Positions 18,475-32,000 are shown, counted from the stretch's first letter. The stretch: 32,000 nucleotides of DNA from an uncultured Opitutales bacterium (GCA_934660865.1 CAKUIA010000002.1:157893-189892); one strand, 5' to 3'. Notes: generated by a model from the letters alone, not told the origin. Numbers and translations: made by a program.

Positions 18475-19476
18475 CTAGTTGAAAAACTTTTCGGCTTCAA
18501 AGCGCGAAATGTTGCGCATATTAACATAGCGGCTTTTTAAAAGCATTTGGTTGCTGTGCCCCATATTTAGCTGCAGACGCGGCAGGTCTTTAAAGCGCTT
18601 GGCAAAAAAGCTGGCAAACGTGTGCCTAAGCACATCGGCTTGCCACGGCAATGCGTTGCGGCTAAAACCGCTGCTTTGCCTTATGTTTTGCCAACGGCGC
18701 TCCCAGTTTTTTGGGCATATTTTGCCCGAACCTATTGTTTTGCTTAAAATGCGCTTTAGCTGCGGCATAATTTCCACTTGGCGCACCCCGCCTGTTTTAG
18801 AACACAGCGAGCGCACAGTTATTGTGTTTTCCTGCAAATCAATATCTTGCCAAGTTAGCCGCCTAACTTCGCGCGGGCGTATTCCCGCATATATCAAAAG
18901 GGCAACGGCTGGCAGGCAAATGCCACCGCACTCGCTTTTTGCAACTTCTATAAGCCGCCTTATTTGGCTTAGTTTTAGCGGCAAAATTTCCTTTTCAATA
19001 ACGCGCCGTTTTTCGATGTGCTTTATGGGGTTTTTGTCGCACCAGTTGTAGCGCACTGCAAATTCAAATAGGGCGTGCAGCATACTCCTTGCCTTGTTTT
19101 GCTGGCTTGGTGTGCTAAAGGCGCAGCTTAGCCACGCTTCGCATTCCGACACACTAAGTTGCGAAAAATTGCGATTGGCAAGTTCGGAGTTGGCTTTAAT
19201 CAGCCTATTGCCTATGCAGCGAATGTCTCGCAAAGAGTCTTTGCGCAAGTGCTTTTTGCTTTCGTAATAAATTGCAAAACCCCGGTTAAAAGGCATTTCG
19301 TTTGCCCTTATGTTGCGAAGGCCAACTTCAATAACTTTTAAAACAAATTGCGCGTCGGTTAAATTGCAGTTTTTGGGCTTCGCGTCTAAAATATTTCTGA
19401 CAAATCTTGCCGCGTCTAACGCAGAAACATTTGCACCGTTTAACACCTCTTTTATCAATAGTTCCATTTTGTCCAT
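18475..19476 (-). CDS. Tyrosine site-specific recombinase (phage-integrase family)
   Basis: The C-terminal catalytic domain has Arg-I in LLIYAGIRPREVRRLTWQDI, the box II block DVLRHTFASFF, and GHSNQMLLKSRYVNM supplying His-III and the Tyr nucleophile. By hand alignment the usual His of HxxR is Asp. Sampled GC is host-like. The start codon (19476-19474) overlaps the left inverted repeat. Confidence 0.85.
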   Translation of the reverse strand: MDKMELLIKEVLNGANVSALDAARFVRNILDAKPKNCNLTDAQFVLKVIEVGLRNIRANEMPFNRGFAIYYESKKHLRKDSLRDIRCIGNRLIKANSELANRNFSQLSVSECEAWLSCAFSTPSQQNKARSMLHALFEFAVRYNWCDKNPIKHIEKRRVIEKEILPLKLSQIRRLIEVAKSECGGICLPAVALLIYAGIRPREVRRLTWQDIDLQENTITVRSLCSKTGGVRQVEIMPQLKRILSKTIGSGKICPKNWERRWQNIRQSSGFSRNALPWQADVLRHTFASFFAKRFKDLPRLQLNMGHSNQMLLKSRYVNMRNISRFEAEKFFN

Positions 19477-19490
19477 CGTATTTAAAATAC
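19475..19490. repeat. Left inverted repeat (IRL) ATCGTATTTAAAATAC
   Basis: It is the exact reverse complement of 19653-19668. It contains the near-palindrome CGTATTT-A-AAATACG. Confidence 0.9.
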
Positions 19491-19652
19491 GAATGTCAAA
19501 TATAAATTCAAAAGATTGTTTGAATTATTTGCATAAAATAACTTACGCAAAATCAGCTGAACGGTTGGAACAGATTTTAAAACAATTTCTTTGCAACGCA
19601 AAATATATAATATTGTGTTTTTCAAAAGCTTGCAACAAAGCAAATGCCTATA

Positions 19653-19668
19653 GTATTTTAAATACGAT
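19653..19668. repeat. Right inverted repeat (IRR) GTATTTTAAATACGAT
   Basis: It is the exact reverse complement of 19475-19490 and ends 25 nt upstream of the ATG at 19694. Confidence 0.9.
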
Positions 19669-19693
19669 AGGCTTCCCTTAAATTTTAATCGTA

Positions 19694-20458
19694 ATGACGT
19701 ATGGCGTTTTTTTAGAGGAAGTGAATTCTATGCTTTCAAAATTTCCCGAAAGCAAGTTGCTTGTCCCCACATTGGGAGGGAGATCTTTGTTCTTGATTTA
19801 TGTGGAAAATGGCAAGTTAAAGATAGTAAATTCGAAAGGCAAAACATACGCTTTCACCGATAAGGAATACAATGCCATACAAAAGCGGTTTGTAGAATCG
19901 CCCGCTTTTGTCGCATTTAAAACTTGCAACTATACAAAAACAACAAATGCGGGGTGTATCGGCTGGACAACCCAAAACGGCAATAAAAATTGGATTTATT
20001 GGGGTTATTTGCCCGCTGTATTTCGCGAATTATATGCGCGCAATGAAATGTGCATAGGCAATTCTTATTTATACAACTCCCCCGATATGCGCTCGTATAC
20101 GGCTGTTGAGTGGAAAGACTTTCTCTCCTACATAAAAATTAGAGATATAATAAGCTCTATCTCGTATAACGATATTAATTTCGACAAAAAAGTTGAACTT
20201 TCGTCTTTTTTAAACGCCAAAAAAAAGGTTTGTGATTTTTTTGTAGGCAATAATTGGGGCATACATTGTGTCCTTTGGAGCAATATTGCAGACACCGTTG
20301 AGGACGAAACTTTGCGCTATATAGTTTTAATTATTTTAAAATGGCTTAGGAAAGAAATCATTAAGTGTTTTAAAAAATGGAAAGACAAAAAAGGAAAAAA
20401 TAAGTACCCGCGCCGCAACTGCAACAAATGCCCGCGCAACAAAAATTATAAACATTAA
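19694..20458 (+). CDS. Hypothetical protein (no recognisable domain; Trp/Tyr-rich core, Lys/Arg-rich C-terminal tail with CNKC)
   Basis: This is a 254-aa ORF and the first gene after the IR-flanked segment, 12 nt upstream of the next gene. An alternative start at 19730 has an AGAGGA about 10 nt upstream. Sampled GC is about 37%. Confidence 0.5.
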   Translation: MTYGVFLEEVNSMLSKFPESKLLVPTLGGRSLFLIYVENGKLKIVNSKGKTYAFTDKEYNAIQKRFVESPAFVAFKTCNYTKTTNAGCIGWTTQNGNKNWIYWGYLPAVFRELYARNEMCIGNSYLYNSPDMRSYTAVEWKDFLSYIKIRDIISSISYNDINFDKKVELSSFLNAKKKVCDFFVGNNWGIHCVLWSNIADTVEDETLRYIVLIILKWLRKEIIKCFKKWKDKKGKNKYPRRNCNKCPRNKNYKH

Positions 20459-20470
20459 AATTTTGTATTT

Positions 20471-22945
20471 ATGAAAAAATATATATTAACATTATCTTTC
20501 TTGGCGGCAGGAGTAATCTTTGCCGACAACGACATTCATACCGGCGAACTTAGCGGAAACTATTCGGGGGCTAGCCACGTTGATTCCGTTTGGGAAAATA
20601 CCTACGTTAAAGATGGAGAAAAGGTTATTTTTTCAACTCCCATAAAAAAAACAGACTATACTCGTGCAAATTTTGCAGACGCGAATCTAACCTCAGCGGC
20701 TTTTGATGGCGCAACATTGACAAATACAGATTTTACTAATGCAAACCTTTCCTCTGTGTCTTTTGGAGATGCAGTACTAAGAAATGCAAATTTTACAAGG
20801 GCAAATCTAACCTCGGCATCCTTTTTTTATGTATTAATGGATGAAGATAATGACATAGAACGTGGTGCGACATTGGAGAATGCGAATTTCACAGATGCGA
20901 TAGTCAAAAAGACCGATTTTTCGATGACCGTATCATGCGGATTTACAGAAGCACAGTTGAAATCCACGAAGAGCTATAAAGAAAAAGATTTAAGTGAAAT
21001 ATCTCTTGGTAATAACGATTTGAGTGGATGGGATTTTAGTGAACAGAATCTAACCTCGGCGGGGTTTTGGTGGTCAACATTGACAAATGCGAATTTTGCG
21101 GGGGCGAATCTAACCTCGGCGAGTTTTTCCGGTTCATTGACAAATGCGAATTTTACGAATGCTACAATTAAAGATGCAGGCTTTTCTGGTACTGTATCAC
21201 ATGGATTTACAGAAGCGCAGTTGAAATCCACGAAGAGCTATAAAGAAAAAGATTTAAGTGGAATATCTCTTGGTAGTAACGATTTAAGTGGATGGGATTT
21301 TAATGAACAGAATTTAACCTCGGCGGAGTTTGCCGGTTCAACATTGACAAATACGAATTTTACGAATGCTACAGTTAAAGAGGTTAATTTTATTGGGACC
21401 GTATCATGCGGATTTACAGAAGCACAGTTGAAATCCACGAAGAGCTATAAAGAAAAAGATTTAGGTGGAATACATCTTGATAGTAACGATTTAAGTGAGT
21501 GGGATTTTAGCGGTCAGAACCTAACCTCGGCGGGGTTTGAATTTGCGACATTGACAAACGCGAATTTTGCGGGGGCGAATTTAACCTCGGTGAATTTTTT
21601 CTCTTCAACATTGACAAATGCGAATTTTACGGGTGCTACGATTAAAGGCGCACGCTTTCAGCATGCTGTATCACGCGGATTTACGGAATCGCAGTTGAAA
21701 TCCACGAAGAGCTATAAAGAAAAAGATTTAAGTGGAATAGATCTTAGCAGTAGCGATTTGAGTGGATGGGATTTTAATGAACAGAATTTAACCTCGGCGA
21801 GTTTTTGCTTTTCAACATTGACAAATGCGAATTTTGCGGGGGCGAATTTAACCTCGGTGAATTTCGTAGATACGATAGTCAAAAAGGCCGATTTTTCGAT
21901 GACTGTATCACGCGGATTTACAGAAGCGCAGTTGAAATCCACGAAGAGCTATAAAGAAAAAGATTTAAGTGGAATAGATCTTAGCAATAGCGATTTGAGT
22001 GGATGGGATTTTAATGAACAGAATTTAACCTCGGCGAGTTTTTGCTTTTCAACATTGACAAATGCGAATTTTGCGGGGGCGAATTTAACCTCGGTGAATT
22101 TCGTAGATACGATAGTCAAAAAGGCCGATTTTTCGATGACTGTATCACGCGGATTTACAGAAGCGCAGTTGAAAACCACAACGAGCTATAAAGAAAAAGA
22201 TTTAAGTGGAATAAATCTTAGTAGTAACGATTTGAGCGGATGGGATTTTAGTGAACAGAATCTAACCTCGGCGAATTTTTACGATACCACATTGACGAAC
22301 GCGGATTTTACTAGCACAGACCTGCGCGGGGCTACACTTACCAACATAGACGGCACGCCGATTTACAAAAACACCATTATGACAGACGGTGTCATAAAAA
22401 ACTTTTCGATAACTTCGGCGGCAGATAACCTTACAATTCACAAATACACACCTGCAACTAGCGGCGGAGAAATTATTAGCGCAAAAGTTTCCGAAAGCCA
22501 CGCAACGGTTTCGGGAGGAGCAACACTTAAGTTAGATACAGGAGCGCAACTAGATATTGTAAACAAAAAGATGCTTATCATAGCCCAAGACGGCGCGCTT
22601 ATTATTGACACCTCTATAAGCGATCCAACGCAAATTTATGTAGAATCTTTGGCGGGATTATTGGTTATAGGCAGCAATTTTACCGTAAACATAACCGAAA
22701 GTCTTTTAGACAACGTTGAATACAAGTTCGACTTAATTTCGTTTGAAGACGGCGCTAATATAGACATTCCCGAAGAATGTGTATCGCTTACCGTAATGGG
22801 CGAAACTTTTAACGGAACTTGGAGTTGTGTTAAGGGCGAAAACACATTCAGCATAATTGCAACGCAAGTTCCGGAGCCCGCAACTGTTGCCGCAATCTTC
22901 GGCGCGCTTGCGTTGGCATTGGCGGTTTACAAACGCAAAAAATAA
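20471..22945 (+). CDS. Secreted pentapeptide-repeat protein with a C-terminal PEP-CTERM sorting signal
   Basis: It has the signal peptide MKKYILTLSFLAAGVIFA. Long runs of A(N/D)LxS/F-type pentapeptides occur (ANLTSAAFDGATLTNTDFTNANLSSVSF..), and the linker GFTEAQLKSTKSYKEKDL appears six times. The C-terminus VPEPATVAAIFGALALALAVYKRKK (22868-22942) is PEP motif, TM helix and basic tail. Confidence 0.85.
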   Translation: MKKYILTLSFLAAGVIFADNDIHTGELSGNYSGASHVDSVWENTYVKDGEKVIFSTPIKKTDYTRANFADANLTSAAFDGATLTNTDFTNANLSSVSFGDAVLRNANFTRANLTSASFFYVLMDEDNDIERGATLENANFTDAIVKKTDFSMTVSCGFTEAQLKSTKSYKEKDLSEISLGNNDLSGWDFSEQNLTSAGFWWSTLTNANFAGANLTSASFSGSLTNANFTNATIKDAGFSGTVSHGFTEAQLKSTKSYKEKDLSGISLGSNDLSGWDFNEQNLTSAEFAGSTLTNTNFTNATVKEVNFIGTVSCGFTEAQLKSTKSYKEKDLGGIHLDSNDLSEWDFSGQNLTSAGFEFATLTNANFAGANLTSVNFFSSTLTNANFTGATIKGARFQHAVSRGFTESQLKSTKSYKEKDLSGIDLSSSDLSGWDFNEQNLTSASFCFSTLTNANFAGANLTSVNFVDTIVKKADFSMTVSRGFTEAQLKSTKSYKEKDLSGIDLSNSDLSGWDFNEQNLTSASFCFSTLTNANFAGANLTSVNFVDTIVKKADFSMTVSRGFTEAQLKTTTSYKEKDLSGINLSSNDLSGWDFSEQNLTSANFYDTTLTNADFTSTDLRGATLTNIDGTPIYKNTIMTDGVIKNFSITSAADNLTIHKYTPATSGGEIISAKVSESHATVSGGATLKLDTGAQLDIVNKKMLIIAQDGALIIDTSISDPTQIYVESLAGLLVIGSNFTVNITESLLDNVEYKFDLISFEDGANIDIPEECVSLTVMGETFNGTWSCVKGENTFSIIATQVPEPATVAAIFGALALALAVYKRKK
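20939..22150 (+). repeat. Intragenic tandem modules (264, 207, 267, 237 and 237 bp), each starting with GGATTTAC..(GFTEAQLK)
   Basis: Module starts were read at 20939, 21203, 21410, 21677, 21914 and 22151, all in frame. The last two full modules (21677-21913 and 21914-22150) differ at 3 of 237 nt by hand alignment. Confidence 0.9.
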
Positions 22946-22964
22946 ACAAGTTAAATAACGGCCA

Positions 22965-23762
22965 ATGCCAAAAAGCTACAAAGTGTTTGTTATAAATCTC
23001 GACAGGTCGGCTGACCGCTGGGAGAACATGCACACGCAGCTTGATAAGCTTGGCCTGCCCTACGAACGCTTTGCCGCAATAGACGGCAAGAAGTGTTCCG
23101 ACGCCTTTTTGGGCGGTTATTATTCGGCATTTTTAAACAAAAAGCGCTATTTTGCAGACTTAAGCCGCGGCGAAATTGCCTGCTACATTAGCCACTTAAA
23201 AGTGTGCCAAAAAATTGTAGATTTAAATCTCGACTACGGCATTGTTTTGGAAGACGACATCGAATTAAGCCCCCTTTTTTATGCGGTTCCCTTTGCATTA
23301 AATGCAATTAAGCGCAAATGGAGCTACATTAAATTGATTGCGCCTTTTAAGCCGAAAAAAGTACGTTCGCGCACGCCGTTTGCGGTAGAAATTCCCGCAA
23401 CTTGCACAACCGAAAAGTTCGACGGCAAAACACCGCAAAAAAGCGAAAAACAAATTTTGGCCCCCTTTGTTTTTGAATTGGTAAGTTGGAACAAGCCGCC
23501 ATGCGGCACGCAGGCCTACGCCATAACAAAAGAGGGCGCAAAAGAATTTTTGGCAAAACGCTCGCGTTTTTTCCGCCCCATAGATGTAGACTTGCAATAT
23601 ACTTGGGAAACTTTGCTAACCATAGAGGGCCTATGCCCGTTTTTATGCAAAATTAAGGAACAACATTCCGAAATTGCACGCGCAAAAAAATACCACTACC
23701 CCTTTGCACGCTTAATTTACAAAATTAGGCGCGCAATTTGTAAAAAGCACAACGCCGCGTAA
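22965..23762 (+). CDS. Glycosyltransferase family 25 (LOS/LPS beta-1,4-galactosyltransferase-like)
   Basis: The N-terminus YKVFVINLDRSADRWENMHTQLDKLGLPYERFAAIDG and GEIACYISHLKVCQKIVD..GIVLEDDIEL are typical GT25 (Lic2/LgtB/LpsA-like). Confidence 0.8.
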   Translation: MPKSYKVFVINLDRSADRWENMHTQLDKLGLPYERFAAIDGKKCSDAFLGGYYSAFLNKKRYFADLSRGEIACYISHLKVCQKIVDLNLDYGIVLEDDIELSPLFYAVPFALNAIKRKWSYIKLIAPFKPKKVRSRTPFAVEIPATCTTEKFDGKTPQKSEKQILAPFVFELVSWNKPPCGTQAYAITKEGAKEFLAKRSRFFRPIDVDLQYTWETLLTIEGLCPFLCKIKEQHSEIARAKKYHYPFARLIYKIRRAICKKHNAA

Positions 23763-25324
23763 TGAAAAACTTAAGACACAAGATTTTCGTAATAAACATG
23801 GCGCAAAGCACACAAAGGTGGAAACAAATTTCCGCACAGCTCGACAAATTGGGTCTAGTTTACGAACGGGTAGAGGGCATAGACGCCTCGAAATTGTCTG
23901 CACAGGAAATGGCTGCCTACTATTCGTTCGAAAAAAATAGAACGCAATACCCGCGCCCCTTGAAAACGGGCGAAATAGGCTGCTACATTTCGCACATAAA
24001 ATGCTGGCAAAAAATTGAAGAGGAAAACCTCGATTTTGGCGTTGTTTTGGAAGACGACATTGTTTTGTCCGACAAGTTTTCGGCAGCGATAGATTTTTTG
24101 AAAACGCATTTTTCGGAATGGAATTTTGTTCGCCTGCAGGAGGAAAACAAAAACCGAATTTTATACAACGAAAAAGTTTTTGCGGAATTTAACCTAAGGG
24201 AATTTATAAGAACATCGGGCTGCACATGGGGGTATGCGGTAAATTTATATACCGCAATGTTTTTGCGGCTTAAGTGCGTGCCGTTTGGCATTACGGTAGA
24301 TTCTGCAATGCACTTTTACCACAAGCTTAATATTAAAACCCTTTGTCTTTTCCCGCCCGTTGTATTTGCGGGCAAAAATTCAGAATCGTGCATAAACACG
24401 GGTTCAAAGAAGCCCAAAAACTTCCATGTGCTGGCACGCCCCGCATTTAGCTTTCGCTGCTATATGGGCAAGCTTTTATATTTTTTTAAGCGCGACGGCT
24501 TGCCGACATTTATAAAAAATTGTTTGCACCTAAAAAAAGAAAAGCGCTTTAACGGAAGCATTGATTTTAACGTGTTATATTGCGCAAACGAAAAATACGC
24601 AAAATTTGCCGCCGTTTGCCTTATATCTCTGCTAAAAAACAACGGCAACTACAATGTAAACGTTCATCTATTCGAGTCGGATTTTTCTGAAAGCACAAAA
24701 AGAACTTTTCTTAAAATTGCGGAAAAATTCAAAAACGCCTCCCTATATTTTTATAAAATAGATTCGGACAAATTTTCCAAGCTTGGCACCAGTGTAGGCT
24801 ATATATCCAAAGAAGGTTATTACCGTTATTTGGCGGGCGAACTTATTGTCGGCAAAGACAATGTTTTATATTTGGATTGCGACACCATTGTAAACAAAGA
24901 CATTGGCGAAATCTTTTTAACCGATTTAAACGGAAATTTTTGCGCCGCAGTTGCCGACAAATACGTTATGCGCCACCAACTGCAAAAAAAATTGGGGCTT
25001 AAGGGAAAATATTTTAACAGCGGGGTATTGTTGTTCAATTTGCCGGAAATCAGAAAAGGCAACGCGGCGAACTCGCTGCTAGAAATCTCCGCAAAAAATT
25101 CGTTCAGATTTCAAGACCAAGACGCAATCAACATAGTTTTCAACGGCAAAATCGGGGAATTGCCCGGCAAATACAACAGCGTTTCAAAATCGGCATTGGG
25201 CGCAAAAATTATACACTATGTCGGGCCAAAAAAGCCGCACAATTCCCGCGAGATAAGCATTCGCAAATTTAAATACAAAAAATACGAGCGTTTGTTTAAT
25301 TCGCTAACAAAGCAGGCAATTTAA
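23762..25324 (+). CDS. Bifunctional glycosyltransferase: N-terminal GT25 domain fused to a C-terminal GT8 domain
   Basis: Residues 1 to about 215 are GT25 (IFVINMAQSTQRWKQISAQLDKLGLVYERVEGIDA, GEIGCYISHIKCW, VVLEDDIVL). Residues about 270-520 are GT8 (YCANEKYAKFAAVCLISLL, LDCDTIVNKDI, FNSGVLLFNL, QDQDAINIVFNGKI, IIHYVGPKKP). The start overlaps the upstream stop by 1 nt (TAATG). Confidence 0.8.
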   Translation: MKNLRHKIFVINMAQSTQRWKQISAQLDKLGLVYERVEGIDASKLSAQEMAAYYSFEKNRTQYPRPLKTGEIGCYISHIKCWQKIEEENLDFGVVLEDDIVLSDKFSAAIDFLKTHFSEWNFVRLQEENKNRILYNEKVFAEFNLREFIRTSGCTWGYAVNLYTAMFLRLKCVPFGITVDSAMHFYHKLNIKTLCLFPPVVFAGKNSESCINTGSKKPKNFHVLARPAFSFRCYMGKLLYFFKRDGLPTFIKNCLHLKKEKRFNGSIDFNVLYCANEKYAKFAAVCLISLLKNNGNYNVNVHLFESDFSESTKRTFLKIAEKFKNASLYFYKIDSDKFSKLGTSVGYISKEGYYRYLAGELIVGKDNVLYLDCDTIVNKDIGEIFLTDLNGNFCAAVADKYVMRHQLQKKLGLKGKYFNSGVLLFNLPEIRKGNAANSLLEISAKNSFRFQDQDAINIVFNGKIGELPGKYNSVSKSALGAKIIHYVGPKKPHNSREISIRKFKYKKYERLFNSLTKQAI

Positions 25325-25337
25325 CAAAGGGCACAAA

Positions 25338-26099
25338 ATGGATATTTGCTATTCTACAAACGAAAGTTTTTCGCCGTATATGGCGGTTTCCATCACGTCG
25401 CTTTTGGAAAACAACGCTTCGCACAGCGTGGTTGTCCATATTTTACATTCCGATTTAAGCGAAGCTACAATCGCACGCCTGTCGAAATTCGAAACGCGCT
25501 ATAAAAACGCGAAAATAGTATTCCATAAAATAGACGATTCGCGCTTTGAAAAATTCGGGCTGACAATAAAACATATTACAAAGGAAACATATTTCCGTTA
25601 TATGATAGCCGACGTTCTACCGAATATCGACCGCGTTTTGTATTTAGACGGCGACACAATCGTAAACGGCAATATTGCCGAACTTTTCGAGACGGACTTA
25701 ACAAACTGCTATTGCGCGGGAGTAAGCGATATTTACATAGAAAGCATAGGCTATAAAAAGACGCTCGATCTAAGCGGCCTATACATAAACGCGGGGGTAA
25801 TACTCTTTAACCTCGACGAAATGCGCAAAACCGACATCGCCGAAAAGCTTTTTAAACTTACCGCCGAAAACAATTTCAAATACCAAGACCAAGACGCAAT
25901 CAACATAGCCTTCAACGGCAAAATTAAGGAGCTTGACTGCGTCTACAACTTCAAGCGCGCCCACCAAAAGGCCTTCCCCGAAAAAATTCCCTCGGCAAAA
26001 ATCGTCCACTACGTCGGGCCAAATAAACCCTGGCGAAAGTTTACATTCAACAAGCTTAAGCGACTGTATTTTAAATATCAGAGAACCTATCAATTCTAA
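25338..26099 (+). CDS. Glycosyltransferase family 8 (LPS/LOS alpha-glycosyltransferase-like)
   Basis: It carries the GT8 blocks LDGDTIVNGNI (DxD), INAGVILFNL, QDQDAINIAFNGKI and IVHYVGPNKPW. It is a paralog of the GT8 half of the preceding gene. Confidence 0.85.
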   Translation: MDICYSTNESFSPYMAVSITSLLENNASHSVVVHILHSDLSEATIARLSKFETRYKNAKIVFHKIDDSRFEKFGLTIKHITKETYFRYMIADVLPNIDRVLYLDGDTIVNGNIAELFETDLTNCYCAGVSDIYIESIGYKKTLDLSGLYINAGVILFNLDEMRKTDIAEKLFKLTAENNFKYQDQDAINIAFNGKIKELDCVYNFKRAHQKAFPEKIPSAKIVHYVGPNKPWRKFTFNKLKRLYFKYQRTYQF

Positions 26100-26103
26100 C
26101 AAT

Positions 26104-28221
26104 ATGCACACCCCCGTAAATCTTTGTTTTGCCTGCAATGACAAATATGCGCCACATATGGCTGCCGCAATAATTTCTGTACTAGAACACTTTCCACAAA
26201 AAAGAAAGCTTTCAATATATGTTTTGGCAAGCAACATTTCAGAGAAAAGTAAATCTAAGATCAACGAGATAAAAAAACTTCACGACTTTTCAATCTCGTT
26301 TATAGATGTAAACAAGAATGAATTTTCGCAATGCCCAATAACAGGGTATGTTAAATATATAACCAAAGAGACATATTATAGGTTTAAAATTCCCGCTCTA
26401 TTGAAAGATGTAGATAAGGTTTTATATTTGGATTGCGACCTTATTGCATTGGCTGATGTATCGCCGCTATTCGACTACGAATTACCCGAAAACAAATACA
26501 TAGGAATGGTACCCGACACAAGCATTTGGTGGCACCAAGATCGGTTAAAATTACCCAAAACGCAACTGTACTGCAACGCAGGAGTAATGTTGATAAACAA
26601 TAAAAAATTACGTGAAATAGGAGCAGAAAAACTGCTTTTCGGCTACACAAAATCGCCCGATAGAGAAATTCAGTTTCAAGATCAAGACGTTCTTAATATA
26701 GTATTCAGTAAAAACATAGAATATTTGCCCGTCTGTTGGAACCTTATGCATAACGCATTGCTTCAAAACGGTAGCTACAGAAACGAACAAGAAATTCAAT
26801 TACACGAGGCTATTAAAAATCCAAAAATTGTTCATTTTACAAACCCCAAGAAACCTTGGAATTTTCGATGCAACAATCCATACAAGAAAAAGTATTTGCA
26901 AGCGTTAAAGAAGACTTCTTTTACTGGAGTTTTTTTCAGATCCAAAATTTCACAAATGGCGACTTCTTTGCTTGGTGAAATATATTCTTCTAGAAAAGAT
27001 TGCTATAGAAAGACAATTAAATTATTTGGCATAACAATTAGGCGCACAAATAGGCAGATACAAATGTCGGACAAATTAACCGAAATGTCGGACAAATTAA
27101 CCGAAATGTCGGACAAATTAACCGAAATGTCGGACAAATTAACCGAAATGCCGGACAAAAATAAAGCCTTAAATGAGATACAACAAATAAATCGCCACGT
27201 CGACAATATCGTAAATTCGTATAAACATTCAAATTCAACGAAGTTTCACAACAATGAACTTCCTTATGCAATATTTGATTATGATTTTAGCGATTCTATA
27301 ACTCTATACAACGCAGGAGATTTTATTCAATCTATAGCCGTAAAAAATTTGCTACAAAAAATCAAGCCAACTTCGGATTGTGTATATATTGACAGGGAGA
27401 AACTATCGTTTGCACAAACAAAAAATCTTCTTGTTGTTATGCAGGGCTATTTTGCCCATGAACTAAATTTCTTCCCGCTTCCAAATCATCTTTCTATATA
27501 CATTGGCATTCATTTAAACAACCGCGCCAAAGCATATGTAAACGAGCTAATAAAAACGGATGCGAAAGTTTTTGAAAATAAAACGATAGGCTGTCGAGAT
27601 TTAGCAACAAAAAACTTTTTCAAAGAATGCGGAGTTGATGCATATTTGTCTAGGTGTTTAACACTCACTTTACCCAAGCGCAAAAAACTAGATACGCAAA
27701 ATAAAATATATATTGTAGACCTACCCGAAGATATAATTGAATCTATCCCTAAAGAACTAACGGAAAATGCGATAATTTACCACCAACGCGAATTGCCGCA
27801 CATAGCCTCGCGCGAGGGTCGCTTTAACAAAGCCGAAGAAATTTTAGACAATTATAGCGCAAATGCAAAATTAGTTATAACCTCCGCTTTGCATTGCGCT
27901 TCGCCATGTGTTGCAATGGGAATTCCCGTGATATTGATAAATTTGGGAAACGAAGGGGAACGCTTTACATCGTTAAAAAACATAATCCCGATTTACACAA
28001 AGCAGGACATCATTAACGGGAAAATAGATTTTTACAATGTTTCGGCGCCAGACATAGAAGACTTAAAGTCTCTTATGTATAAAAATTTGTCTTTAACAAT
28101 AAAAGACGCCATATCTGACGCAAAACAAGATTCGGACGAACTACAAGAAATCCGACAGGAAATTGAAAACTTTAAACCAAATACTTGGACAAAAAATTTG
28201 CAGCACACAAATTTTATATAA
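26104..28221 (+). CDS. Fusion protein: N-terminal GT8 glycosyltransferase, heptad-repeat linker, and C-terminal polysaccharide pyruvyl-transferase-like domain
   Basis: The ORF track starts at 25933 inside the previous gene. The ATG at 26104 (MHTPVNLCFACNDKYAPHMAAAIISVL) is the typical GT8 start. The GT8 blocks are LDCDLIALADV, CNAGVMLINN, FQDQDVLNIVF and IVHFTNPKKPW. The C-terminal roughly 330 aa (..GCRDLATKNFFKECGVDAYLSRCLTLTL.., ..AKLVITSALHCASPCVAMGIPVILI) resemble the PS_pyruv_trans family by eye. Confidence 0.7.
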   Translation: MHTPVNLCFACNDKYAPHMAAAIISVLEHFPQKRKLSIYVLASNISEKSKSKINEIKKLHDFSISFIDVNKNEFSQCPITGYVKYITKETYYRFKIPALLKDVDKVLYLDCDLIALADVSPLFDYELPENKYIGMVPDTSIWWHQDRLKLPKTQLYCNAGVMLINNKKLREIGAEKLLFGYTKSPDREIQFQDQDVLNIVFSKNIEYLPVCWNLMHNALLQNGSYRNEQEIQLHEAIKNPKIVHFTNPKKPWNFRCNNPYKKKYLQALKKTSFTGVFFRSKISQMATSLLGEIYSSRKDCYRKTIKLFGITIRRTNRQIQMSDKLTEMSDKLTEMSDKLTEMSDKLTEMPDKNKALNEIQQINRHVDNIVNSYKHSNSTKFHNNELPYAIFDYDFSDSITLYNAGDFIQSIAVKNLLQKIKPTSDCVYIDREKLSFAQTKNLLVVMQGYFAHELNFFPLPNHLSIYIGIHLNNRAKAYVNELIKTDAKVFENKTIGCRDLATKNFFKECGVDAYLSRCLTLTLPKRKKLDTQNKIYIVDLPEDIIESIPKELTENAIIYHQRELPHIASREGRFNKAEEILDNYSANAKLVITSALHCASPCVAMGIPVILINLGNEGERFTSLKNIIPIYTKQDIINGKIDFYNVSAPDIEDLKSLMYKNLSLTIKDAISDAKQDSDELQEIRQEIENFKPNTWTKNLQHTNFI
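27064..27160 (+). repeat. Perfect 21-bp tandem repeat x4 (ATGTCGGACAAATTAACCGAA, encoding MSDKLTE) plus a degenerate fifth unit
   Basis: Units lie at 27064, 27085, 27106 and 27127 and are identical. The partial unit ATGCCGGACAAAA starts at 27148. The repeat is in frame within the 26104-28221 CDS, between its two domains. Confidence 0.95.
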
Positions 28222-28261
28222 CGTTCATGACGTAATTTGTATTTTTTGAAAGGAACAAATA

Positions 28262-29224
28262 ATGGACACCGATTATCCCCCAAGAAATTTTTTGGACATA
28301 AAGTTAGGATATGCTTGTAATTTTAAATGCGAATACTGCTATCAAGTATCAGATGGAGTTCGTCAAACTGGACTTTTAAAAAAAGAGCACATAAATGCGT
28401 TATTGTCGTATTTGGACAGAACCAAACTACAGTTTTACGTAACATTGGCAGGCGGAGAGCCGTTTATTTATCCATATCTTGATTCTATTGTAGACGGACT
28501 AACTAAAAGGGGACATTCCCTTGCGATAATAACGAATTTTTCTGCAAGTGAAGATGTTTTAAAGAATTTTTTCCTAAAAACAAATGGATTTCTAAAATCT
28601 TTCTCTATATCCATACATCTAAGCCAGTGGAAAAATATTAACGATTTTTTTGATAAATTCGAAAATATAATTGCATTTGTAAAAAAAAACAAAATAGATC
28701 TTAGTATATATCCCACTTGCGTTCTTACAATCGAAAACATTGATAAGGTAAAACAGCTTCATTTAAGAATGAAGGAATATGGGTATCCATTGGAAGTTCA
28801 ACGCGTGTACTACAATGGTAAATACCAGATATATTCATCTGAAATAGAAAATTATTTTAAAGACAAAGACCTAGATGTTTTAAGCGAGAATACTGATAAC
28901 GCCAAGTTTTATGGAAATTTGTGCTATGCGGGCAGTAGGTTTTTATATGTAGAATCCAACGGGAAAATATTTCGTTGTTATACCGATCAGGAAAACGAAA
29001 AACTATACAAATTAGGCACCCTAGACAATCCGGAAAAAATTCCTGTATTAAAAAAAGCGTATCCGTGTTTAGCACACGAAAACTGTGTGTGTTTTAAACA
29101 TTTTCAACGGCAACATTTTATAACCAATAAAAAAGCCTCTTCAACTGAAATGAGTGAAGCGCTGTCATTCAACTTGTGTTTTTGCCAAAGAATTATCAAT
29201 TATTTTAAACATCTACATCAATAA
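28262..29224 (+). CDS. Radical SAM enzyme with a Cys-rich C-terminal (SPASM/twitch-like) region
   Basis: It has the CX3CX2C motif in LGYACNFKCEYCYQ and the GGE motif in LAGGEPF. C-terminal cysteines fall in CYAGSRFLYVESNGKIFRC..PCLAHENCVC. Sampled GC is about 33%. Confidence 0.85.
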   Translation: MDTDYPPRNFLDIKLGYACNFKCEYCYQVSDGVRQTGLLKKEHINALLSYLDRTKLQFYVTLAGGEPFIYPYLDSIVDGLTKRGHSLAIITNFSASEDVLKNFFLKTNGFLKSFSISIHLSQWKNINDFFDKFENIIAFVKKNKIDLSIYPTCVLTIENIDKVKQLHLRMKEYGYPLEVQRVYYNGKYQIYSSEIENYFKDKDLDVLSENTDNAKFYGNLCYAGSRFLYVESNGKIFRCYTDQENEKLYKLGTLDNPEKIPVLKKAYPCLAHENCVCFKHFQRQHFITNKKASSTEMSEALSFNLCFCQRIINYFKHLHQ

Positions 29225-29301
29225 ATAATATCGCATTTATTGCTATTAAAGAAAAATCAAGCCGACAATTATAATAAATTTAAACTTTGTTGTTTTATAA
29301 T

Positions 29302-31038
29302 ATGAAACGCTATTCTCGCTATTTAAACTACATAAAACCCAAGATTTGGCATTTGATTGGGGCGCTGTTATCTGGACTGCTGTTCGGAGCCTCGAGTGGC
29401 TTCGGTATGCCCGTTATTTTCGACAAAGTTTTGAAGCGCATTTTTATGCCCGAGAACGGCGTATCATATAACCTATGGTATGTATTCGGCGTAGCTATGC
29501 TCATTCCGTTCGTCTTTATTGTCCGTGCGATAACGGGCTATTTGAGCGGGTATTTGATGAGCTATGTTTCACTCGACGTGTTGCGCAGAATCAAGCAAGA
29601 CTTGTTTTCGCGCGTGCAAGACTACCCTCTTTCATTCTTCGACAAACACACAACTGGCGACCTCTTTGTGCGCTTGACAACCGACACCCAAGCGGTGCAG
29701 ACAATTCTGCTTTCGTTCGCCTCGGAAATGATTCGCCAGCCGGTGCAAGTAATAGGCGCGCTTTCGTTTTTGGCGTACATGTGCCTTACAAAGGGCGAGA
29801 TTGTATTTCTTTTGGTGTTCATTGCAGCCGTACCGTTTTGCATAATTCCCGTGCAGATGATGCGACGCAACCTCAAGCGCTGCGCGAAAATGTCGGCGGA
29901 GTCGCTGGGAGCGATAGCGCAGTGCTTCAACGAAAATCTCGCCGCGGCACACGAAGTACGAGTATTCAATCTCCAAGAACCACAGAAAAAAAGATTTTGG
30001 GATATGAACGTAAGCTTTCAAAAGTTAGTGCTCAAGATAACACAATACGAGCTTTTACAACAACCGATGATGGAAGTTTTGGCGGCAACAATGGTTTCTA
30101 TTACTTTTGTCTACGCATACAAGGCAAATATTGATTTTTCGACATTCGCGGCAATCGGGCTTGCGCTTTATTTTACAATCGACCCAATTAAACGAATTGT
30201 GAGAATGTGCACAGACTTTATCAAAATTACTCCGTCGTTTGATAGGTTAAATGAAATTCTCGACTATGTTTCCACCGTACCCGAAGCCGAAAACCCCGTG
30301 AAAATCGACACTTTGCGCGGCGAAATCGAATTTAAAAATGTAAACTTCGCCTATTCCGACAAAGCCGTTTTGCACAACGCAAACATAAAAATTCCCGCAG
30401 GCACGAGTTGCGCTTTGGTGGGCGAATCGGGCGCGGGCAAGAGCACGTTTGCAAAGCTTGTCATGCGCTTTTACGACCCGACCGAAGGCTCAATCACGGT
30501 TGACGGAATTAATCTCAAAGATATGTCGCTTTTCGACCTCCACAAGAACCTCGGTTCCGTACCACAGTATCCCGTGCTTTTCAACGACACAATCTACAAT
30601 AATATTTTACTAGCAAGGCCAAATGCAACCGAAGCCGAAGTACATATTGCAGCCCGCGCCGCATTCGCGCACGACTTTATTATGGAGCTGGAAAACGGCT
30701 ACAACACCCGCGTTGGTGAACGTGGCGATAGACTTTCTGGCGGACAAAAACAACGTATTGCAATAGCGCGCGTGTTCTTGAAAAACCCGCCGCTTATCGT
30801 CTTGGACGAAGCCACTTCTGCTCTCGATGTCAACAGCGAAGCCTTTATACAAAAGGCGATAGACAAACTTATGCACGACCGCACAATGTTTATAATCGCC
30901 CATCGCTTCAGCACAATCCGCAACGTGAAGAAAATCATCGTCTTCAAAGAGGGCAACCTTATAGATTTTGGCACACACACCGAACTCTACGCCCGTTGCC
31001 CCTACTATAAAACGCTTTACGACAAACAGGCAAAATAG
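29302..31038 (+). CDS. ABC half-transporter, fused TMD-NBD exporter of the MsbA/PglK type
   Basis: The N-terminal six-TM exporter domain is followed by an NBD with Walker A GESGAGKST, signature LSGGQKQRIAIARV and Walker B LIVLDEATSALD. The ORF track start at 29287 is a TTG, so the ATG at 29302 (MKRYSRYLNYIKPK) is preferred. There is no N-terminal C39 peptidase domain. Confidence 0.9.
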   Translation: MKRYSRYLNYIKPKIWHLIGALLSGLLFGASSGFGMPVIFDKVLKRIFMPENGVSYNLWYVFGVAMLIPFVFIVRAITGYLSGYLMSYVSLDVLRRIKQDLFSRVQDYPLSFFDKHTTGDLFVRLTTDTQAVQTILLSFASEMIRQPVQVIGALSFLAYMCLTKGEIVFLLVFIAAVPFCIIPVQMMRRNLKRCAKMSAESLGAIAQCFNENLAAAHEVRVFNLQEPQKKRFWDMNVSFQKLVLKITQYELLQQPMMEVLAATMVSITFVYAYKANIDFSTFAAIGLALYFTIDPIKRIVRMCTDFIKITPSFDRLNEILDYVSTVPEAENPVKIDTLRGEIEFKNVNFAYSDKAVLHNANIKIPAGTSCALVGESGAGKSTFAKLVMRFYDPTEGSITVDGINLKDMSLFDLHKNLGSVPQYPVLFNDTIYNNILLARPNATEAEVHIAARAAFAHDFIMELENGYNTRVGERGDRLSGGQKQRIAIARVFLKNPPLIVLDEATSALDVNSEAFIQKAIDKLMHDRTMFIIAHRFSTIRNVKKIIVFKEGNLIDFGTHTELYARCPYYKTLYDKQAK

Positions 31039-31181
31039 ACAAGATAACCACCTTGTGTTATGGTGGATTGTTTTTATATGCGAACCATATTACAAGAAGA
31101 ATTATGTTCAAGAGCTAGCATATGAAGAAATAGAGGGCATTGAATAAAGTTTTAGATAAGTATAATTATTGATATGACAAG

Positions 31182-31209
31182 CGCCGCCAAGAATTTGGCG
31201 GTGTTTTTT
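31182..31209 (+). terminator. Rho-independent terminator downstream of the ABC exporter gene
   Basis: A 9-bp stem (with one G:U pair) pairs CGCCGCCAA (31182-31190) with TTGGCGGTG (31195-31203) around a GAAT loop, followed by TTTTTT. Confidence 0.6.
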
Positions 31210-31211
31210 GT

Positions 31212-32000
31212 GTGTGGTTGGGGAAAAATACAAGCACTCTATTGCGAGCAAATTTTTTTGTGAAACAGACTTTAAATGCCGACAAAGAAAGAGACTTTTT
31301 TACGTTGATACAAATGCTGCGCAATTCTAAGTCGCTTTTATCGGTATCAAATTTTGCCGAACGGCTAACGCTTCTTAAAAGTATTGATTTTATTTAAAAG
31401 ATTTGGGGAAAGCTTAAAACCTTTAAATCTCTTTAAAATACATGAGACAAGGGGATTTTTTTGCTACAAACGTGTTTTGAAAAAAGTGCCTGCTTTTATA
31501 ATAGAAAATCGAGAGTTGGACTGAAAAACTAATCCTGCACCACAAACACAATTTTTTAAAATTTTCGGGCGCCGAAGTGGTTTTATAATACAAAAAGAGG
31601 CTTCTGAAAGTATATTGCAAGCGCCTTATTTTATGTTTATAAATGTATTGCAAATTATTTTCGGACGGCAGCATGTTCGCCATCGCCATTAGATTTGAAG
31701 AGATAAGCGAAGCCAAAATAACTTTTGTAGGCTAAATCCACAAAAATCTCGAAAAGAAATGCCAAGCATGCCAACTACAAAAAATCCATTTACAACAAAC
31801 TAGCAACCATAATACGAGCCATTGCAAAGGAGCTTCAAAATATCGCGGGTTCTTTGTCCCTTAGATTGGGTATGTCGGTGGCGCAAGATACGCGCTGATT
31901 CGGGTTTTAGTGGTTGTTGGGAACAAGACGTTTTGCGGCACACCTACGCCAGTTTTTATGCAAAGCGTTTTAAAGATTTGCCGAGGCTGCAGGTAAACAT
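31212..32000 (+). pseudogene. Degraded paralog of the 18475-19476 tyrosine recombinase, on the opposite strand, running off the window
   Basis: Frame 1 of 31861-32000 translates to LDWVCRWRKIRADSGFSGCWEQDVLRHTYASFYAKRFKDLPRLQVN. The intact copy has KNWERRWQNIRQSSGFSRNALPWQADVLRHTFASFFAKRFKDLPRLQLN. In-frame stops at 31801 and 31810 and frame changes upstream interrupt it. Weaker colinear similarity occurs further 5' (GKNTSTLLRANFFVKQTLNADK versus GANVSALDAARFVRNILDAK, starting around 31221). Confidence 0.55.

Follow-up and report, generated by a model that had tools for sequence, protein, structure and literature searches.

When a recombinase gene lies beside a string of surface genes, the question arises whether a single DNA inversion governs all of them or only the nearest. 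This question is raised by positions 18475-31038 of a 32,000-nt stretch from an uncultured Opitutales bacterium (GCA_934660865.1 CAKUIA010000002.1:157893-189892), referred to here as the window, whose proteins were searched against Pfam and NCBIfam profiles. The explanation favored with moderate confidence is that the region joins two separately conserved units of gut Opitutales (Verrucomicrobiota), and that one flip would co-switch a surface protein and an outer-core glycan of the lipopolysaccharide/lipooligosaccharide (LPS/LOS) type. Unit 1 (18475-22945) would be one copy of a multi-copy cassette consisting of a recombinase, a 188-bp element, a small cytoplasmic gene and a PEP-CTERM protein. 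Unit 2 (22965-31038) would be a resident LPS/LOS-core-type cluster of GT25/GT8 glycosyltransferase (GT), pyruvyl transferase and radical SAM genes, ending at a conserved MsbA-like exporter. The recombinase would flip the element, which would supply the promoter of the gene string, and a single flip would then change the surface protein and the outer-core glycoform together.

Inversion of a recombinase-paired element

The recombinase, a protein of 333 amino acids (aa) encoded on the minus strand at 18475-19476, matched Pfam Phage_integrase (PF00589, E 1.7e-13) and was aligned to XerA (5hxy) across the Arg-I (GIRPREV) and VLRH/GH motifs. The catalytic tyrosine, Y317, was invariant in the family alignment, and on these sequence features the protein is a XerA-like tyrosine recombinase. 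More than 1355 homologues were found, and an Opitutales genome has several copies; when GTDB species genomes were scanned, 45 integrase loci were returned, all of them in gut or rumen Opitutales and again several per genome. At least five paralogous switch loci were present per genome.

Two perfect 16-nt arms of an inverted repeat (IR) bound the element, the integrase-proximal site at 19475-19490 (core GTATT-TAA-AATAC at 19478-19490) and the operon-proximal site at 19653-19668 (core GTATT-TTA-AATAC at 19653-19665). The invertible segment between the arms (19491-19652) is 162 nt long, and the distance from core to core is 188 bp. Exactly two occurrences of the core pattern GTATTNNNAATAC were detected in the window, vs. 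0.02 expected from shuffles. The same design was found when the window was compared with 32 of the 45 loci from gut and rumen Opitutales: the integrase ATG was placed 1 nt outside a GTATT-NNN-AATAC core in 33 of 33, and a second such core was found 165-193 bp from the first. The central trinucleotide, of which 12 types were recorded, was always reverse-complementary between the two ends of an element, and this co-variation is what functional inversion sites predict. A metagenome scan added 22 further complete elements.

Inversion itself was observed at the orthologous locus of a sister species. In two contigs (loci L053 and L004), the 187-bp element was exactly reverse-complementary to that of two others (L054 and L055), with flanks 99.9-100% identical and an identical integrase, the contigs coming from different samples. 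Orthology with the window was shown by the synteny of the integrase, GH28, porin and lysyl-tRNA synthetase (LysRS) genes, three flank proteins being 92-99% identical and the integrase 91% identical. The element is inverted by the recombinase at this locus, and the switch is active in nature. The candidate recombinase-linked switch that had been proposed in a preliminary description, made from the sequence alone, is thus real, with its 16-nt IR, a family of 33 loci and both orientations in the sister species. For the element at 19478-19665, the junction expected in the inverted state is AAAATAC joined to TATAGGCATTTGC.

Several smaller observations concern the switch and its enzyme. An invariant Asp (D281) occupies the His-II position of the integrase family, where the HxxR motif of XerA/XerD has His. 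In four metagenome contigs (L056, L057, L059 and L060) the gene beside the switch was called at 113 aa only, vs. 331-333 aa for full-length integrases, with a different gene beyond, which suggests rearrangements there. A central trinucleotide unique to each switch of a genome, which would make the switches orthogonal, was not a strict rule, being shared by recent duplicates (L005/L006, L008/L012, L021/L023, and L020/L038). An assembly break 13 nt inside the element, in the Logan sample ERR7745687, was considered as a sign of mixed orientations and set aside as inconclusive.

Proposed promoter logic and the gene string

The ATG of the first gene was found 28 nt beyond the core in the window, and 14-45 nt beyond it in many loci where this could be read, which would place the promoter within the element or the site. 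In the conservation profile of the element, TTGACA (minus strand, 19499-19494) was nearly invariant; it is found at one end only, at a distance of 3 nt from the core, and has a conservation of about 2 bits. The element also contains TTGCAA at 19629-19634. Past the operon-side core, 16 of 30 loci had TAnnnT at offsets 0 and 2, vs. a background of about 1.3 per offset, and none of the loci compared had it at the corresponding offsets (0-8) on the integrase side. This operon-side motif is located 16-18 nt downstream of where TTGACA would land after a flip; in the window, the candidate -10 box is TAGGCT (19668-19673), following the operon-proximal site. A split promoter can be proposed from this geometry, in which TTGACA would serve as a -35 box flipping with the element, and the -10-like TAnnnT would stay fixed on the operon side only.

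The window had TTGACA facing the integrase, as did 27 of the 33 compared loci and, with one or two exceptions, the 22 metagenome elements, so that most loci would be OFF. The best guess for the window orientation, which is the majority state, is an OFF or low state. On the other side of the element, the position of the integrase start codon leaves no room for a Shine-Dalgarno sequence in any of the 33 loci, and a TATTnn inside the core is located 7 nt upstream of the A of the integrase ATG. This suggests that the integrase mRNA may be leaderless, with its -10 box forming part of the enzyme's own binding site. Additionally, a hairpin (19506-19525, ATTCAAA-N6-TTTGAAT) followed by a T-rich run was found just upstream of the conserved TTGACA, and a CAAA...TTTTTG pattern was kept at this position across loci; its possible role is that of an insulating terminator or of a site for protein binding.

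Downstream of the switch, the open reading frame map and the profile searches reproduced the eight plus-strand genes (19694-31038) of the preliminary description, with their domain content and successive gaps of 12, 19, -1, 13, 4, 40 and 77 nt. The first convincing plus-strand terminator after the switch was an intrinsic-terminator-like hairpin past the ABC transporter gene (31179-31206, plus strand; 12-bp stem with 6 GC pairs and a T-run), which closes the gene string. The 19-nt junction between the pentapeptide-repeat gene and the first GT25 gene, with no terminator before 31179, makes read-through likely, and the single transcription unit suggested earlier remains a good fit to these tight gaps. 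Transcription would pass from the surface-protein gene into the GT genes, where the gaps are 40 nt or less. A sigma-70 scan of the region gave 26 promoter-like matches vs. 34.8 in shuffles; since this is fewer than in the shuffles, the scan was uninformative on internal promoters. The GC content, 48% to the left of the switch, fell to 32-44% over the genes from the orphan to the radical SAM enzyme and rose again to 46.6% for the ABC gene.

Two conserved units and competing explanations

The first gene past the switch (19694-20458, plus strand) encodes an orphan cytoplasmic protein of 254 aa, for which no match was obtained in Pfam, NCBIfam, PADLOC or PDB, nor any fold match for its AlphaFold2 (AF2) model (pLDDT 73). 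Its family comprised 10 clusters, always placed between a TAA-type switch and a large protein. Here, that large protein is a secreted pentapeptide-repeat protein of 824 aa with a PEP-CTERM tail (20471-22945, plus strand; Pentapeptide E 1e-59 in 13 stretches). The PEP-CTERM model TIGR02595 passed marginally (18 bits vs. a cutoff of 16), and the tail, VPEPATVAAIFGALALALAVYKRKK, has the PEP motif, the transmembrane helix and the basic cluster; the N-terminal signal peptide, MKKYILTLSFLAAGVIFA, was judged by eye. No exosortase (EpsH/Xrt) was encoded within the 32-kb window.

The pentapeptide-repeat gene varies in length, with tandem repeats of about 237 nt (79 aa) at 20928-22376, detected by Tandem Repeats Finder (TRF) and a repeat search. 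A 99.9%-identical contig had one such repeat fewer (745 vs. 824 aa), and an exact look-up of the 824-aa protein returned no record because the repeat number differs between strains. The sister-species protein was of 1742-1889 aa and only 44% identical, despite flanking genes 92-99% identical. Furthermore, the sister species (L053-L055) had an extra 471-aa pentapeptide-repeat gene between porin and LysRS (L053 14075-15490) that the window lacks.

The association of switch and PEP-CTERM protein was general, as the tail was found on the first or second divergent gene past the switch in 16 of 29 related loci, 11 of the 16 being pentapeptide-repeat proteins. The gene between switch and PEP-CTERM gene varied, belonging to a P-loop family of about 150 aa, to a second family (L004 and L018), or to the orphan family. 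Members of the P-loop family (142-161 aa, N-terminal P-loop such as VLSGRMNSGKTTT, no Pfam family) were first past the switch in L007, L012, L017, L023, L025 and L039, ahead of PEP-CTERM genes; by analogy with UpxY/UpxZ of Bacteroides, they may be locus-specific regulators.

The glycan block, encoded on the plus strand, opens with a GT25 gene (22965-23762), followed by a GT25 + GT8 fusion (23762-25324), a GT8 gene (25338-26099), a GT8 + polysaccharide pyruvyl-transferase fusion (26104-28221; PS_pyruv_trans 51 bits vs. a cutoff of 25), a radical SAM gene (28262-29224; Pfam Radical_SAM) and an MsbA-like ABC half-transporter (29302-31038; ABC_membrane + ABC_tran). All GT domains were above the Pfam gathering scores (GT25, 120 and 112 bits; GT8, 134, 171 and 146 bits); these two GT25, three GT8 and one PS_pyruv_trans domains agree with the earlier count of five GT domains and a pyruvyl-transferase-like domain. 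The equivalog PRK15171 gave 79-117 bits vs. a cutoff of 461. The linker between the GT8 and pyruvyl-transferase domains is an in-frame repeat of 21 nt x 4.7 (MSDKLTE; 27062-27159, TRF), and in a 99.4-99.9%-identical contig this protein was 14 aa shorter, that is, by two 21-nt repeat units.

The order GT25-(variable)-GT8-GT8/X-radical SAM-(about 200 aa)-ABC was kept in five relatives (L066-L070). For the first GT25, the identity was 80% with the sister species, 60-61% with L066-L069, 56% with L023 and 52% with L070. The GT8 protein at 25338-26099 was 85-87% identical in L066-L069; for the radical SAM enzyme the identity to the window was 75%, for the GT8 part of the fusion protein it was 65%, and the ABC protein was 94% identical in L066-L069 and 82% identical in L070. 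The C-terminal domain of the GT8/X fusion was a methyltransferase in the relatives vs. a pyruvyl transferase in the window. In L066-L069, the block was placed directly behind a paralogous integrase and switch (trinucleotide AAG, 178 bp, 63% integrase identity) and no PEP-CTERM gene was present, the switch preceding the orthologous GT25 by 50 nt, with nothing in the interval. In L070, the block was next to mutL, with neither integrase nor PEP-CTERM gene; the window block is also near mutL.

These contexts changed the preliminary description in one respect and reinforced it in another. That the glycan-assembly genes are the PEP-CTERM protein's own, as had been stated, is not supported, since the GT/radical SAM/ABC block occurs without that protein (L066-L070) and without an integrase (L070). 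The gene neighborhood, whose conservation was to be compared across related genomes, was conserved for the switch with its PEP-CTERM gene (the 16 of 29 loci given above) and for the GT block (L066-L070), but not for the whole set as one unit, a GT25 homologue being present in only two switch-linked PEP-CTERM loci, L004 and L023. The proposed switch control of the glycan genes, in turn, gained from the paralogous switch directly ahead of the same GT cluster in other Opitutales, so that the arrangement is recurrent. As a switch stands ahead of the glycan cluster in at least two arrangements, selection for switch control can be argued. Phase-variable co-expression of the surface protein and an LPS/LOS-type outer-core glycan is a plausible prediction.

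The likely product of the block was approached through its variable content and its last genes. In the variable positions, L067 and L068 had DAGK and an LtaS/EptA-like sulfatase-family gene, the sister species had GT11 and GT25/Caps_synth, and L023 had GT25 with LpxB later downstream; no Wzx, Wzy, initiating transferase, ligase or oligosaccharyltransferase was found in the gene string with Pfam and NCBIfam. This content points to LPS/LOS core chemistry, and not to a carrier-lipid capsule pathway or dedicated protein glycosylation. For the ABC protein, the best NCBIfam model was MsbA TIGR02203 (435 bits), and PglK was rejected (NF050066, 217 bits vs. a cutoff of 1000); of the "MsbA/PglK-type" exporter described previously, the MsbA likeness was retained and the PglK part was dropped. 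The protein is probably the housekeeping lipid A-core exporter and its gene probably keeps its own promoter, for which no conserved sequence was seen in the aligned upstream regions of the window, L066, L067 and L070.

The radical SAM enzyme was also considered as a radical SAM/SPASM peptide maturase, which was rejected: the SPASM signal was weak (17.8 bits vs. a cutoff of 21.5), all maturase equivalogs were far below their cutoffs, and each context read had GT genes as the neighbors. Only generic core matches, all below cutoffs, were obtained with the viperin, MoaA and SPASM families. Homologues of the enzyme adjoined GT8 genes in every context read and, in Opitutales, were upstream of an MsbA-like gene.

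Three other explanations of the region were weighed. One is that the switch governs the orphan and PEP-CTERM genes alone, the GT/radical SAM/msbA cluster being constitutive from internal promoters with no phase variation of the glycan. The resident block of L070 indeed lacks a switch, msbA has the GC of the core genome and is likely to be essential, and AT-rich coding DNA offers many promoter-like sites; the majority orientation in 12 independent samples (eight with orphan homologues, L056-L063, and four with the GT block, L066-L069) would also be awkward if it silenced the LPS core. Nevertheless, the short gap between the pentapeptide-repeat gene and GT25, without any terminator before 31179, does not suit it, and the switch 50 nt ahead of GT25 in L066-L069 would be hard to explain without selected switch control. 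This explanation was judged unlikely. Far less credit was given to a mobile genomic island (low GC, 19.5-29.3 kb) carrying the integrase, with the IRs being incidental. The drop of GC to 32-44%, an integrase remnant at the far end (31852-32000) and the very different cargo between species with shared flanks would suit an island, but the integrase ATG abuts the IR in all 33 loci with co-varying central bases, and the exact inversion of a 187-bp segment alone was observed. Moreover, the GT block order, ending in the MsbA-like gene, was kept in all five relatives, near mutL in the window and in L070; with no tRNA, no Rfam match and no att-like direct repeats, the island was rejected.

The remaining explanation is a glycoprotein coat, in which the GT25/GT8 enzymes would glycosylate the pentapeptide PEP-CTERM protein and the switch would activate a protein and, at the same time, the enzymes dedicated to its decoration. 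In its favor, GT25 directly follows the pentapeptide PEP-CTERM gene in three lineages (the window, the sister species with 80% identity and L023 with 56%), the repeats are rich in N-L-T/S motifs, and glycosylation is commonly presumed for PEP-CTERM proteins (PMC4960237). Nevertheless, L066-L070 have the same GT block and ABC gene without a PEP-CTERM gene, most switch-linked PEP-CTERM genes have no GT neighbor, the block contains no oligosaccharyltransferase, GT41-type N-glycosyltransferase or lipid-carrier pathway by Pfam and NCBIfam, and the varying neighbors (LpxB, DAGK with the EptA/LtaS-like gene, and MsbA-like) indicate LPS. The coat was regarded as rather improbable. The same doubt applies to a composite proposal of self-contained switch cassettes (locus-varying crossover trinucleotide, leaderless integrase mRNA and split promoter) with a co-switched beta-helix PEP-CTERM protein and GT25-led decorating enzymes.

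Several points weigh against the favored explanation, the co-switching of surface protein and outer-core glycan. One orientation only was seen in the window's own lineage (the window, L001, L051 and L052), the inversion being that of the sister species and not of this strain. Both the operon structure and the ON/OFF assignment are inferred: the two element ends also hold TTG/TTA about 18 nt upstream of the TATTnn inside the core, which could allow outward transcription in either state, the leaderless integrase mRNA included, and the majority orientation could be the ON state, or the switch could be one of high vs. low expression. At the far end of the string, the ABC gene has core-genome GC (46.6%) and a 77-nt upstream gap with TATAAT, and it may be outside the switched unit. 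The MsbA equivalog cutoffs were missed (TIGR02203, 435 vs. 602 bits; PRK11176, 371 vs. 867 bits), and the LPS/LOS assignment, including the lipid A-core acceptor, is drawn from family annotations and neighbors.

Comparison with known switches and neighboring features

The closest precedent is that of the Akkermansia muciniphila invertons near PEP-CTERM genes, as described in PMC11892184. According to that text, they are many per genome, are enriched beside PEP-CTERM sorting-domain genes and change orientation in vivo; an example from PhaseFinder group 138 (Jiang et al., 2019, as cited in PMC11892184) is of about 191 bp with 17-nt IRs, at 2092093-2092283 of CP001071. The likeness to the Opitutales elements is one of phylum, length and PEP-CTERM neighbors. 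Unlike the Akkermansia invertons, for which PMC11892184 links no nearby invertase to group 138 and reports no LPS-type GT cluster, each Opitutales element has its own integrase, with the start codon 1 nt from the site, and the Opitutales switch is linked to such a cluster. Invertible promoters ahead of polysaccharide loci have also been published for Bacteroides (PMC11892184). The earlier statement that no described system combines these parts was, in view of both precedents, overstated. In a literature search, no paper on Opitutales invertons was found.

The fimS switch of Escherichia coli is a short invertible promoter element for surface-structure genes, flipped by the adjacent tyrosine recombinases FimB and FimE with all-or-none expression. 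The Opitutales element resembles it in being short, in adjoining a tyrosine recombinase and in preceding surface-structure genes. However, fimS exists as one locus served by two recombinase genes that read toward the switch, whereas here each element has one divergent recombinase and at least five paralogous loci are found per genome; moreover, the start of the recombinase gene overlaps the Opitutales site, and the element may not contain the whole promoter.

The capsular loci of Bacteroides fragilis and B. thetaiotaomicron have many promoter invertons per genome, with Mpi as a global serine recombinase and also Tsr, and they follow Wzx/Wzy pathways; the first genes past the switch are the locus-specific small regulators UpxY/UpxZ. 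Gut commensals with many invertons ahead of multi-gene glycan loci are common to both cases, and the small first genes are a possible analogy, but in Opitutales GT25/GT8 outer-core-type genes stand beside msbA, and most often a PEP-CTERM protein is the cargo. In Neisseria, Haemophilus, Campylobacter and Helicobacter, the phase-variable LOS outer core (lgt, lic2A, lgtC and others) changes by slipped-strand repeats in single genes. The core-extending families GT25 and GT8 (and GT11 in the sister species) are shared with those systems, whereas in Opitutales the inversion of a promoter would switch an entire cluster.

Hardly studied so far, gut Opitutales are frequent in ruminants and in the non-industrial human gut, with Hadza samples as the source of several contigs. 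Their PEP-CTERM surface proteins stand under a large family of promoter switches, each paired with a recombinase and numbering five or more per genome, and in at least two arrangements a switch is also placed over an LPS/LOS-core-type glycan cluster. If the read-through is true, one DNA flip would alter a surface protein and an endotoxin glycoform together, which bears on escape from immunoglobulin A (IgA) and phages and on host sensing. The fixed design (a GTATT-NNN-AATAC core, the integrase ATG 1 nt off, TTGACA at one end) is a simple metagenome search pattern for finding and scoring such switches.

At the end of the window, beyond the terminator, a C-terminal fragment of a paralogous integrase was detected (31852-32000, plus strand; tblastn, 63% identity to integrase residues 253-304) with in-frame stop codons upstream, and it is probably the remnant of a second integrase of the same family. 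The contigs of close relatives stop about 1 kb past the ABC gene, as expected at a multi-copy repeat.

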